Shown piece after piece: positions 17,947 through 29,515 of a stretch of DNA of 64,000 nucleotides. This DNA comes from Candidatus Heimdallarchaeota archaeon (GTDB taxonomy: Archaea > Asgardarchaeota > Heimdallarchaeia > Heimdallarchaeales > Heimdallarchaeaceae), in assembly GCA_030603365.1 (NCBI GenBank), contig JAUVXV010000014.1:32001-96000 (forward strand). Reading direction: 5' to 3'. The position numbers were made by a program, and so were the translations under genes. Below the pieces are notes generated by a model that was given only the letters and a program-made list of their open reading frames with translations, did no database searches and was not told the origin of the DNA. Position 1 is the stretch's first letter. Each line of letters opens with the position of its first letter.

Positions 17947-19398
17947 TTAATCTTCCTCCAACTCTATAGTTTTCTTATGTAAAATGTGTCTTTCCCAATC
18001 GAAAGTAATTTCACCATCGTCATGTTTTGTAAAAGGTACATCCATCTTACCATACTCGGTGATGACATAGAAGTCCATCACTTCTGGTTTATCATTTTTT
18101 GGTATAAGAGGTGTCGAATGTTTATCAAACCAATTCTCATCTGTGAGAAATAACAGTCCATTTCTGCTTTGTATTTCCATTGTTATTGTTTTCTTATAAG
18201 CTTCATATTTCCCAGAGAGTACTCGATAGTGTTTTCTGCGTTTGTAGAGGGGCATGTCTTCGTCAGGGTCTTTTCCGAGAAGTAATGCAAACGCAGTTAG
18301 TATTAGGTGTTCAGGAGTCCAGTTAACATTCTGGAGCTGTGCATAGGTAAGATTTAACTCGGGTATGAAACCTACCCAACCACCAGAAACACCAGACATT
18401 CCCCCATGAACATATAATCTATGACCGAAGAAATTTTCGTGAATCTTCCAGCCATAGCCGTAAGCAGCATTAGAATTTGGATAATAGTTCAAGTACTGAG
18501 CTTGAATATTATTGTTATGGGATTGCCACATTTCTTTGATTAAAGATTCTTCCAAAATTCTGTTTCCATTAAATTCTCCACCATCAATATGACATTGTAG
18601 AAAATTAGTAATTTCCTTTGCACTGGAGATTAATCCTCCTGAACCAGAGATAAAGGGACCAGATAAGAGGTTTTTAGGAGCTCGTTTGATCTTCTTGTCC
18701 TGCAATCCAAAATTAAATCCTCGAGAAATATCCTCATCTTCTTCAGCGGTCTTTCTAAAGAAAGTGCTTCTATTCATTCCTAAAGGTTGTAGGATTTTCT
18801 CTGTAATATACTCTTCAAATGGTTGTTTAGATAGTTTTTCTATAAGTTGTCCAAGTAAGACAAAACCGGCATTGAAGTAGTAATATTTCTTATTAGGTGA
18901 ACTTAGAATTTCACTCTGAGCATCATTTATGTGAAAGTAGAAATCATCCCAATTCCCCATTGGGAAGATAGGAGCGTTAGCTTGATATAAGTCCTGATTC
19001 ATCTGGGAAAAATAAAATGTCATTAAAGATGGAATACCAGAAGCGTGACTCATCAAGTGTCGAATCTTTATTGGATCAGATTCTAACCCAATTTTAACAG
19101 GTATATATTTTGAAATTGGGTCATCAATATTCAGTAACCCAGCTTCTTGTAATTGCAAAACCCCGAGACATGTGATAGATTTTGTAATAGATGATATTCC
19201 AAATAGAGTATTAGGAGTTGTTGCCTTAACATCACCTTTTTCTCTCACTCCAAAACATCTCTGATATAATGGTTTTTTATCCTGAGTGATTAAGATTGAT
19301 ATTCCAGGAACTTTCAAATTTCGCATAACTTTGACTACTTCTCTATCAAATTTATCCTTGAATTTAGTGAAATCTATGTCTCGTGTGTTCATTATCAT
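17947..19398 (-). CDS. Serine hydrolase, beta-lactamase/S12 family (Pab87-like peptidase)
   Basis: SITK (SxxK), LMSHASG, YFN (YxN), HGG; extra C-terminal domain. Confidence 0.88.
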   Translation of the reverse strand: MIMNTRDIDFTKFKDKFDREVVKVMRNLKVPGISILITQDKKPLYQRCFGVREKGDVKATTPNTLFGISSITKSITCLGVLQLQEAGLLNIDDPISKYIPVKIGLESDPIKIRHLMSHASGIPSLMTFYFSQMNQDLYQANAPIFPMGNWDDFYFHINDAQSEILSSPNKKYYYFNAGFVLLGQLIEKLSKQPFEEYITEKILQPLGMNRSTFFRKTAEEDEDISRGFNFGLQDKKIKRAPKNLLSGPFISGSGGLISSAKEITNFLQCHIDGGEFNGNRILEESLIKEMWQSHNNNIQAQYLNYYPNSNAAYGYGWKIHENFFGHRLYVHGGMSGVSGGWVGFIPELNLTYAQLQNVNWTPEHLILTAFALLLGKDPDEDMPLYKRRKHYRVLSGKYEAYKKTITMEIQSRNGLLFLTDENWFDKHSTPLIPKNDKPEVMDFYVITEYGKMDVPFTKHDDGEITFDWERHILHKKTIELEED

Positions 19399-19421
19399 TC
19401 ACGCTCTTATGAATAGTTATT

Positions 19422-19480
19422 ATGTTTAGTTTTTAACGCTTTTGCTAAACATATGTTTTTTTCCCCGAAATACTTATATA
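19422..19480 (+). promoter_or_regulatory. Palindromic operator ATGTTTAG-N15-CTAAACAT plus BRE/TATA upstream of oppA
   Basis: Arms at 19422-19429 and 19445-19452, then CCCGAAA-TA-CTTATATA. Confidence 0.75.
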
Positions 19481-27309: not shown

Positions 27310-27325
27310 AGAATGAAGACAAGAA

Positions 27326-29515
27326 GTGATGAAATTGAGCAGTGAATTCATCAAAAAACTAAATGATTACATGTTTAAAGCAGACTACAAGAAAGCATAT
27401 GATGAAATCGAAAAAACTCAAGCAGACAGATCATATTCAGAAGAAGAACTGTTAATATTGGATTATAAAAGATGCCTAATTCTAAGATATCTTGGTGAGT
27501 TTGAAAAAGTAATTCAAATTTCAAAAACTACTCAAGCAAAAGCAATTAATCAAGCAAACGATCTTGTTCAAATCGATTCCTTGATTTTGGAGATATTTTC
27601 CCATTACAGACTTAATAGGATTGAGCTTGTCCAAAACCTATTAGATAAAGCTGAGTGTCTGTTATCAAAAATTAAAGATAAAGAGATTCCTATAAGAAGA
27701 ACTAAATTGTTGACATACAGGGTTTATGCTTGTATCGCAGAAGGTGAGTTTGAAAGAGCTCAAATTCTTGCTCAAGAAAATTTTACTCTAAGTAGGGAAC
27801 AAAATAATCCTGAACTCATAGCATCTGCATATTATGTCAATGGTTGGGTGAGCATGCATAAAGGCGAGTTGTCAGATGCTATATACAATTACCATGAGAG
27901 TTTAACTATTAGAGAAAAACTCAACAATCACCCATATGATTTAGCTCATTCTTTGTTCGGTCTGGGATATGGTTATAAGAACATAGGTGATTTGGATAAA
28001 GCATATTCGTGTCTTAGTCGATGCAAAGAAATCCGTGAAAAAATAGGTAATCAACAAGACATAGCTTGGACTTTGCTAAACCTTGGAGATGTTTTTTACC
28101 AAAAGAACGAAGTTAAAAAAGCTCAAGAATTTTATGATCATTCTTTGATAATCAATCGTATGATGAACTATACCTTCGGTATTATTTTTTCATTAAGACG
28201 TTTAAGTTCCGTTTATGAGAGTATGAAGGAACCTCAACTAGTAATAGACACACTTGAGAAAGCACTTGAATTTGCAAAGCAGCTAGAAGATGTGGACCCA
28301 GAAGTATACACATTGTTCGATTTGATAAAATACGATATTGAAAACAAACTTGATTCAAATAAGCTCAAAAGCTACCTTTCAAGTTTGAAAAACATAAATC
28401 AGAGGTACAATAACAGAATATTTGATCAGATTTATAGACTCGCCCAAGCCTTAATATTTAACTCAGAAGCTGATAAAAGAAGTCAACTGAAAGCTAGAAA
28501 TCTATTTCGAGAGATTACTGAGGAAGAGATTATGAATTTTGATTACACTCGAATTGCAATGCAGAGATACAGTAAACTGCTTGCAGAGGAATTGAATAGA
28601 TATCTAAGTGATGAGAGTTTATCAAGCCAATTAACAGATCTCTCAGAGAGTATTAATCCAGTAGTGCTCTATAGATCATATTCTATGGTTGCAGAAAATT
28701 TTCTTGATTTGAGTCAAATAGCACTCGAGGAGATTGACATTGATAAAGCTAGAGAGTTATTGAAACGAGCTCAATATCTATGTGATTTTCTAAACTTATA
28801 CAATAAAGGTTCTACTCCTTTCAGGATAATTTATTCATTATTTGTTAAAGAGAGAAACTTAAACGAATTAAGCAAATTTCTAAAGATAACTAAAGGTGCT
28901 TTAAGCAGTCAATTAAAACTTCTAATAGATTTAGACATTGTTAAAATTTCTAGAGAAGAGCAAATAAGATCTGCAACTATGCTCAAAAAATATTACTCCT
29001 TAGGTAACAAAGGTTTTGAATTATTACAACCTTTAAACCTAGAGTTATATAATAGTCTGAATCTCAAAGAGACAAATTCCGATCACTTAGTTGATACTCT
29101 GATGAAACCTAGATTATTGACAAAGATAATTAGAGATGCGACAATACTAACTGATAACTTTCAGAATTTCTTTGAAGAACAAGTTCTTATGAAACCTTCG
29201 AAACCAACAGATGAAGGTTTGAGTGATAAAAACCTTGAAGATGTTAAGAAAATCTTTAGTCAATCAATTGATGTTCAGGTTGAACAATTTCTGCTTTCAG
29301 AAAAACAATATCAAACATATAAGAAACTATGGAAGGAATTTTCTGAAAAGATAAAATCAGAGATTATTAAGGAAAACATTGATTCTGCTGAATACCATGC
29401 AACAGAAAAGCCAATTTATGTTGCTAATCTAGTTCTTCCAATCAGTGATTTAATGGAACTTGAAAGATATCAGCTTAAGAAACGAAAGCAAAATGAGAAA
29501 TCTAATGAAGAATAG
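27326..29515 (+). CDS. TPR-repeat protein with C-terminal winged HTH; probable transcription regulator
   Basis: TPR units such as LAHSLFGLGYGY..GDLDKA and IAWTLLNLGDVF; HTH NLNELSKFLKITKGALSSQLKLLIDLDIV...KYYSL; 16 bp after oppF. Confidence 0.82.
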   Translation: MMKLSSEFIKKLNDYMFKADYKKAYDEIEKTQADRSYSEEELLILDYKRCLILRYLGEFEKVIQISKTTQAKAINQANDLVQIDSLILEIFSHYRLNRIELVQNLLDKAECLLSKIKDKEIPIRRTKLLTYRVYACIAEGEFERAQILAQENFTLSREQNNPELIASAYYVNGWVSMHKGELSDAIYNYHESLTIREKLNNHPYDLAHSLFGLGYGYKNIGDLDKAYSCLSRCKEIREKIGNQQDIAWTLLNLGDVFYQKNEVKKAQEFYDHSLIINRMMNYTFGIIFSLRRLSSVYESMKEPQLVIDTLEKALEFAKQLEDVDPEVYTLFDLIKYDIENKLDSNKLKSYLSSLKNINQRYNNRIFDQIYRLAQALIFNSEADKRSQLKARNLFREITEEEIMNFDYTRIAMQRYSKLLAEELNRYLSDESLSSQLTDLSESINPVVLYRSYSMVAENFLDLSQIALEEIDIDKARELLKRAQYLCDFLNLYNKGSTPFRIIYSLFVKERNLNELSKFLKITKGALSSQLKLLIDLDIVKISREEQIRSATMLKKYYSLGNKGFELLQPLNLELYNSLNLKETNSDHLVDTLMKPRLLTKIIRDATILTDNFQNFFEEQVLMKPSKPTDEGLSDKNLEDVKKIFSQSIDVQVEQFLLSEKQYQTYKKLWKEFSEKIKSEIIKENIDSAEYHATEKPIYVANLVLPISDLMELERYQLKKRKQNEKSNEE

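Follow-up and report, generated by a model that had tools for sequence, protein, structure and literature searches.

Within a 64,000-nt stretch of the 3.65-Mb genome of a Candidatus Heimdallarchaeota archaeon (genome label G000), which we call the window and whose positions give all coordinates below, lies a compact gene block consisting of a peptidase, an oligopeptide (Opp) importer and a regulator that joins tetratricopeptide repeats (TPRs) to a winged helix-turn-helix (wHTH). The Pab87/CubicO-type S12 serine peptidase (17947–19398, minus strand; open-reading frame, Pfam, Protein Data Bank (PDB) match and motifs) diverges from oppA (19556–21313, plus strand), which encodes an OppA/DppA-family substrate-binding protein (SBP_bac_5), followed on the same strand by oppB (21477–23024), oppC (23034–25073), oppD (25078–26187) and oppF (26200–27309), all four recognised by open-reading frame and Pfam, and, starting 16 bp past oppF, the regulator gene (27326–29515; TPR_12/TPR_1 and HTH_5). 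The same 31-bp palindrome with 8-15-8 architecture, ATGTTTAG-N15-CTAAACAT, stands before oppA (operator 1, 19422–19452) and before oppB (operator 2, 21380–21410). An original prediction made from the sequence alone had described this layout correctly, including the 16-bp interval, the repeated palindrome and the peptidase diverging from its first copy. The block forms a real, conserved and local regulon whose regulator has a new architecture, and is otherwise a variant of known one-component control. Our preferred reading, to which we assign a probability of roughly 45%, is a local, nutrient-responsive regulon for unusual (D- or beta-amino-acid-containing) peptides, in which uptake and the peptidase would be controlled with opposite signs.

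Palindrome searches with shuffled controls gave an expectation of zero in 100 shuffles against the two copies present in the window, and these are the sole perfect copies in the genome (spacers of 0 to 30 bp searched). A scan of the same genome with a matrix built from 31 sites yielded no further convincing operator, the next best match scoring 22.0 with three mismatches and those after it 13.5 or less, and a looser palindrome pattern, searched across 83 genomes for a wider regulon, dropped to control frequency. Among 31 genomes of the same family, in which those carrying the block are kin, the operator (at most one mismatch) was found in 15 and the oppA orthologue and the regulator in 16 each, in almost identical genome sets, the discordant cases being fragmented contigs or a degenerate site; the peptidase is co-inherited, and the co-occurrence of operator, regulator and opp genes that the original prediction had proposed to look for is thereby borne out. 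Twelve genomes show the contiguous order peptidase-site-oppA-site-oppBCDF-regulator, the remainder being consistent with contig breaks, and the full set (both sites, oppABCDF, divergent peptidase and regulator) is kept jointly in about 16 Heimdallarchaeia genomes; one genome (G013) has both operators in degenerate form. The operator arms are 94–96% conserved, against mean pairwise identities of 53% for the regulator and 56% for OppA. When the matrix was applied to loci left out of its construction it recovered twin sites in L069 (GCA_001940725.1) and L071 and a degenerate site in L073. A GTDB scan with one genome per species gave 16 loci, every one a Heimdallarchaeia-type assembly, and the regulator's close relatives carry the labels Heimdallarchaeota or Heimdallarchaeaceae.

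The operator is thus real, local and conserved, and the regulator is its probable binder. Several observations weigh against that second step. Because related genomes acquire or lose the block whole, co-occurrence shows selection on the site rather than the identity of its binder, and would not by itself name that protein; locus L068 links regulator and opp yet has no full operator, only a half-site (best score 1.3), in a rearranged gene order with PepF, DmpA and a peptidoglycan-binding-domain gene close by; and the genome has other ArsR-like proteins. A different transcription factor encoded elsewhere might therefore bind the palindrome, with the TPR-wHTH gene merely co-inherited, which we consider improbable. 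The original prediction had reasoned that an operator kept in genomes lacking the regulator would count against it: no family member without the regulator was found to have a strict site, with the reservation that G006 has both sites while its regulator was not found (the assembly is 81% complete and the contig ends inside oppF). Single operator-like matches in other families lie mostly within coding frames, at control frequency, which also argues against a separate binder, as does the lack of another good site in the genome. Furthermore, the site recurs beside a distant regulator homologue away from opp, at locus L062, where an operator with a score of 16.2 (reached three times in 3.65 Mb) adjoins a 35%-identical homologue with opp not nearby, although a small ArsR gene adjoins this site too.

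As a side observation, L062 carries two overlapping 8-15-8 palindromes (9414–9472) with an FtsX-type ABC exporter cluster on one side and the small ArsR gene and the distant TPR-wHTH homologue on the other, and these may represent a second regulon of this regulator family. More distant regulator homologues have different neighbours and no site. Co-evolution of operator and recognition helix was considered and gave no rule, as the helix is altered alike in P0123 and P0034, of which just one retains the site; the regulator and OppA trees are congruent in part only, and we do not claim co-evolution.

Promoter geometry at the two operators

Downstream of each operator stands the sequence CCCGAAA, then three bases and a TATA box, which we read as a transcription factor B recognition element (BRE) and TATA pair. 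The candidate oppA promoter lies at 19464–19480 (plus strand), placed by its operator-to-TATA distance in 16 genomes and by the genome-wide promoter profile, which has a TATA peak 28–31 bp before ATG and an A-rich BRE; the candidate oppBCDF-regulator promoter lies at 21420–21435 (plus strand). CGAAA follows the operator after 12–13 bp at site 1 and, in 16/16 genomes, after 11 bp at site 2, and the TATA box begins 21–22 bp past operator 1 (16 genomes) and 19–22 bp past the operator across both sites. In genome G025 a third operator lies between the genes for an aminotransferase and a methylmalonate-semialdehyde dehydrogenase (MMSDH), upstream of the mmsA TATA box, and the phasing of operator to BRE/TATA is fixed there as it is at oppA and oppB. 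Both operators thus stand upstream of the opp TATA boxes in what would be activator geometry. The second promoter and operator ahead of oppB are explained by a terminator-like stem-loop with a T-run (21324–21355, plus strand) that follows oppA.

On the peptidase strand operator 1 has a different appearance, which the original prediction had missed. Its 15-bp spacer (19430–19444, minus strand) is filled by CAAAA-NNN-TTAWAAA, a putative BRE-TATA pair of the peptidase gene, in 16/16 genomes, compared with 0/16 for the spacers of operator 2, which serves as the paired control since operator 1 was the source of the pattern and the 16/16 is partly circular. Variation is confined to the three N positions, and spacer conservation is 0.88, compared with 0.64 at operator 2. 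In L069 the operator overlaps the 5′ end of the peptidase gene instead, with the 21-bp distance to the oppA TATA preserved. Operator 1 would therefore enclose the peptidase's own promoter in repressor geometry, and control of the peptidase probably runs opposite in sign to that of opp.

The archaeal regulators TrmBL1 and SurR likewise have palindromic sites that precede BRE/TATA at part of their promoters and cover the promoter of a divergent gene, and with TrmBL1 upstream sites activate whilst overlapping or downstream sites repress, including in one divergent region (PMC4706686). The placement here agrees with theirs in sequence geometry, and by the TrmBL1 position rule the bound regulator would raise opp and block the peptidase. 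Both are global, with sugar- or redox-sensing domains, whereas the regulator here is local (2–3 sites) and has a TPR sensor.

The same geometry bears on a coherent derepression scheme, in which the ligand-free dimer represses all promoters, including that of its own operon, and imported peptide derepresses them or flips the regulator allosterically, so that importer, peptidase and catabolic genes would all be substrate-induced. We regard this as the second most likely reading, somewhat behind the dual-sign one. The operators end 9–11 bp upstream of the BRE in fixed phase, and in the TrmBL1 assays two of three upstream sites activated transcription and none repressed it (PMC4706686), both of which argue for activation at opp; CopR, a repressor-activator bound upstream of the BRE, offers a precedent for derepression (PMC7830388). 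Several further points weigh on the derepression side and against opposite signs. The opp promoters fit the genome's BRE/TATA consensus so well that they might need no activator, the nearest folds to the DNA-binding module are ArsR/Phr-type repressors, and the regulator gene is the last in an operon that it would itself control. The geometry in G025 would moreover give mmsA and the aminotransferase gene opposite signs, which is awkward for one pathway, whereas under derepression all five G025 promoters would carry one sign.

A G-U-tolerant hairpin (19503–19526, plus strand; −7 to −11 kcal/mol) is conserved in 17/17 loci where the oppA mRNA is predicted to begin, and likely stabilises the binding-protein mRNA; it is kept even in the rearranged L068 (about 9606–9625). 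In metatranscriptome data from one study, related-strain contigs cover 19518–21232 (oppA) and little else; these can neither rank genes nor map starts, and we do not use them as support.

Architecture and probable origin of the regulator

The AlphaFold2 model of the regulator (predicted local distance difference test, pLDDT, 80) resolves into about 10 TPR hairpins (aa 1–398, also by Pfam), a helical linker (aa 404–492), an ArsR/Phr-like wHTH (aa 496–564, about 28814–29020; HTH_5 at aa 500–540, above the Pfam cut-off, with profile and fold matches) and a predicted helical dimerisation domain (aa 584–727). The TPR-first order of the original prediction holds, whereas the wHTH it placed at the C-terminus is internal, with about 165 residues of helical domain beyond it. 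The regulator is the sole HTH gene in the conserved block and the wHTH is its best-conserved part (0.83).

The two halves have separate relatives. About 25 paralogues in the genome share the TPR body to about aa 483 and have differing tails without an HTH; these 550–830-aa proteins are partly in tandem (for example C4:38835–51644, C12:120345–127044 and C11:36863–72931), and their common post-TPR tail is conserved and without a Pfam match. Residues 478–728, in turn, are homologous to stand-alone 230–255-aa Asgard ArsR-like proteins. Homologues of about 255 aa occur at L045 1269–2036 and L046 6088–6852, each adjoining an 816–826-aa gene that resembles a putative P-type ATPase. Best profile and fold matches of aa 478–728 are Phr (2p4w), PH1932 (1uly/2cwe) and Kfla_6221 (4g6q), which share an ArsR-like wHTH with a C-terminal dimerisation domain and differ in being stand-alone proteins of about 200 aa without TPRs, at 12–20% identity; past the wHTH the fold match is weak and the searches gave no fold for that domain. 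With the TPR body shared by paralogues and the C-terminal module found alone, the regulator is most simply read as a fusion of two Asgard parts, a lineage-expanded TPR body and an ArsR-like module, and not as RRNPP by descent.

The C-terminal module is predicted to form a homodimer, as the palindrome requires: the modelled pair scored 0.73 against 0.00 for the best control, above a mark reached by 20/30 solved pairs and 1/23 single chains, with contacts agreeing to at least 97% and pLDDT at least 79, a pass that may stem from likeness to the solved dimers (Phr, PH1932).

Searching with the TPR fold put LGN at the top, with KLC also among the top matches and NprR and Rap lower (5dbk, template modelling (TM) score by target 0.62–0.69), as expected for a generic TPR. 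The structural comparison suggested by the original prediction therefore does find NprR and Rap, ranked below LGN. That prediction also proposed an analogue of the Firmicute RRNPP receptors with reversed domain order that activates its own importer; the activator position at both opp promoters is consistent with the latter part, whilst the generic fold and the probable fusion origin make RRNPP a poor best model. RRNPP(A) receptors (NprR, PlcR, Rgg, PrgX, Rap, AimR) share with the regulator a TPR superhelix, a DNA-binding domain and a link to peptide import, as a functional analogy only. A superhelix of 5 or 9 repeats is among their defining features, for which the about 10 hairpins predicted here are a fit of generic kind, and their HTH, when present, is N-terminal (10.1101/2023.09.19.558401). 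Here, by contrast, an ArsR-like HTH follows the TPRs in an archaeal protein that has no paired pro-peptide and would control its own importer and a peptidase. At E ≤ 0.01 Pfam listed no RRNPP-specific family for the regulator, RRNPP families being ones that diverge fast.

A closer precedent for the domain order, overlooked in the original prediction, is MalT of E. coli, which activates ABC-importer genes and has its DNA-binding domain at the C-terminus, after the TPR sensor, and PH0952 is an archaeal case with an ArsR-like DNA-binding domain and a TPR sensor (PMC6468293). Both differ in having a STAND ATPase domain; Pfam gave no P-loop/NOD ATPase family in the regulator, whose N-terminal 490 aa are all helical hairpins, and its TPR_MalT match is weak and below the cut-off. 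ArnR was considered as a further TPR precedent and was not confirmed. Literature searches on Asgard TPR-HTH regulators and on archaeal RRNPP returned no description of this architecture or operator.

The MalT–MalK pair (PMC6468293) also suggests that the TPRs could sense a protein partner, such as OppD/OppF or the peptidase, tying transcription to transport activity. The body derives from about 25 HTH-less paralogues that are presumably protein-interaction modules, the best fold matches LGN and KLC are protein-binding TPRs, and the regulator gene comes after oppF in nearly all loci. We nonetheless judge a partner protein to be a poor bet, as regulator and oppF lie apart in L068 and the conserved groove residues form two compact patches. 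Opp-linked homologues retain these groove-facing residues (D83, F90, Y93, R94, F210, W247, N251 and D254), most of which are replaced in non-opp homologues, the patches being D83/F90/Y93/R94 and W247/N251/D254. It counts against a peptide-binding groove that groove positions, taken together, show no significant excess of conservation over outer ones (p = 0.15).

Peptidase, neighbouring genes and the probable kind of ligand

Pfam assigns the peptidase a Beta-lactamase domain and the octamerisation domain Pab87_oct, its SxxK and YxN motifs are intact, and its sole PDB match at E < 1e-20 is Pab87 (2qmi, E 5.7e-75), from which a D-stereospecific exopeptidase activity may be expected. OppA has a signal peptide and a C-terminal anchor, and its best PDB match is AppA (1xoc, E 2.7e-35); family-5 binding proteins of this type may also carry non-peptide solutes. 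Beyond the regulator lie a PHP-domain membrane-anchored metallohydrolase (29528–30571, minus strand; Pfam), a convergent neighbour in 8 genomes, and three linked catabolic genes encoding MMSDH (31014–32471, minus strand; Pfam match above cut-off), an omega-type class III aminotransferase (32584–33885, plus strand) and a DmpA/BapA S58 peptidase (33930–35045, minus strand), beside which (31014–35045) no operator was found in this genome. Aminotransferases and MMSDH act in beta-alanine breakdown, which this pair would fit. A racemase reading of the class III enzyme was rejected, as it has EPILGEGG like GABA aminotransferases, where racemases have Asp at the equivalent position, making a transaminase likelier.

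Genes for DmpA/BapA S58, MMSDH, omega-type aminotransferase, amidohydrolase, M20, S9 and acetamidase recur as neighbours of the block, a set that matches in kind the D-peptide scavenging cluster of Pyrococcus. In P. abyssi (PAB0086–PAB0095) Pab87, which is D-stereospecific and cleaves D-amino-acid peptides, is encoded with a dipeptide ABC importer, a pyridoxal phosphate-dependent aminotransferase, amidohydrolases and D-aminoacylase, and the cluster was proposed to recycle bacterial wall debris (PMC2651629). A regulator or operator is not described in that paper; the block here has a dedicated TPR-wHTH protein and twin operators.

The importer, TPR and HTH anatomy, the NprR and Rap fold matches and the positive feedback that would arise if importer and regulator were activated and the peptidase repressed are all features of RRNPP-like quorum sensing, in which the cell exports a peptide of its own making, takes it back up through Opp and senses it with the TPRs, with peptidase repression sharpening the switch. 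We consider this very improbable here. As in the original prediction, no small pre-peptide gene was identified: none is conserved between the genes of the window or of about 20 loci, though an unlinked one may exist, a 46-aa open-reading frame in G003 being unique and without signal-peptide shape. The genome shows no distal regulon, and the targets are uptake and catabolism only. The original prediction had thought quorum sensing as plausible as nutrient sensing; given the lack of a linked pro-peptide gene, the catabolic neighbours and the lack of a distal regulon, a nutrient is much likelier to be sensed than a cell-to-cell signal. A bolder version seems doubtful to us at present: the TPR domain, drawn from a lineage-expanded Asgard family, would be a cytoplasmic receptor, convergent with the RRNPP type, that recognises the D-amino-acid peptides of bacterial cell walls and raises one of uptake and D-peptidase while lowering the other.

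Other features of the block vary between relatives. OppB (515 aa) and OppC (679 aa) have long additional N-terminal membrane segments, most relatives measuring about 330 and 305 aa, the OppB extension being limited to the subclade G000, G016, G020 and G023 and that of OppC occurring additionally in G001, G017 and G022; large variable insertions occur in OppD or OppF of L033, L040, L023 and L034 (total length up to 596 aa). The PHP gene of G016 (L049 1868–2914) and a second oppA copy in G003 (L024 4947–6715) are each broken into two open-reading frames. A serine resolvase gene (17039–17797) adjoins the peptidase, and in G005, G016 and G017 the cluster is likewise flanked by copies 79–89% identical to it, which suggests that the peptidase-opp-regulator block is or was mobile. 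Near the cluster in L069 (14723–18659), two tubulin/FtsZ-family genes surround an unannotated 436-aa gene.

A model of the circuit and its meaning

In our preferred, dual-sign reading the regulator very probably dimerises via its C-terminal helical domain and sets two winged HTHs on the palindrome. Standing upstream of BRE/TATA, the dimer would stimulate the oppA and oppBCDF-regulator promoters, whilst at site 1 the same dimer would straddle the divergent BRE/TATA and, judging from position and as with TrmBL1 and SurR, block the peptidase. The TPR groove probably binds the imported peptide or its breakdown product, with the ligand-free form most likely the DNA-bound one. Under scarcity uptake would be favoured; the arrival of peptide would release the dimer, raising the peptidase and bringing uptake back down.

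To our knowledge, transcriptional control has hardly been put to the test in Asgard archaea, and the block offers a compact, defined pair (one protein and one 31-bp site, with three promoters each of predicted sign) that is testable in vitro without culture. The D-peptide scavenging pathway of Pab87 type, put forward in 2009, gains a candidate regulator. The block is also a putative example of a new sensor-regulator arising from the fusion of two Asgard parts, and it hints at what one protein of the large and unexplained TPR expansion of Heimdallarchaeia may do. If the cell-wall version were true, an Asgard archaeon would detect imported muropeptide fragments by a receptor convergent with those of the RRNPP type.

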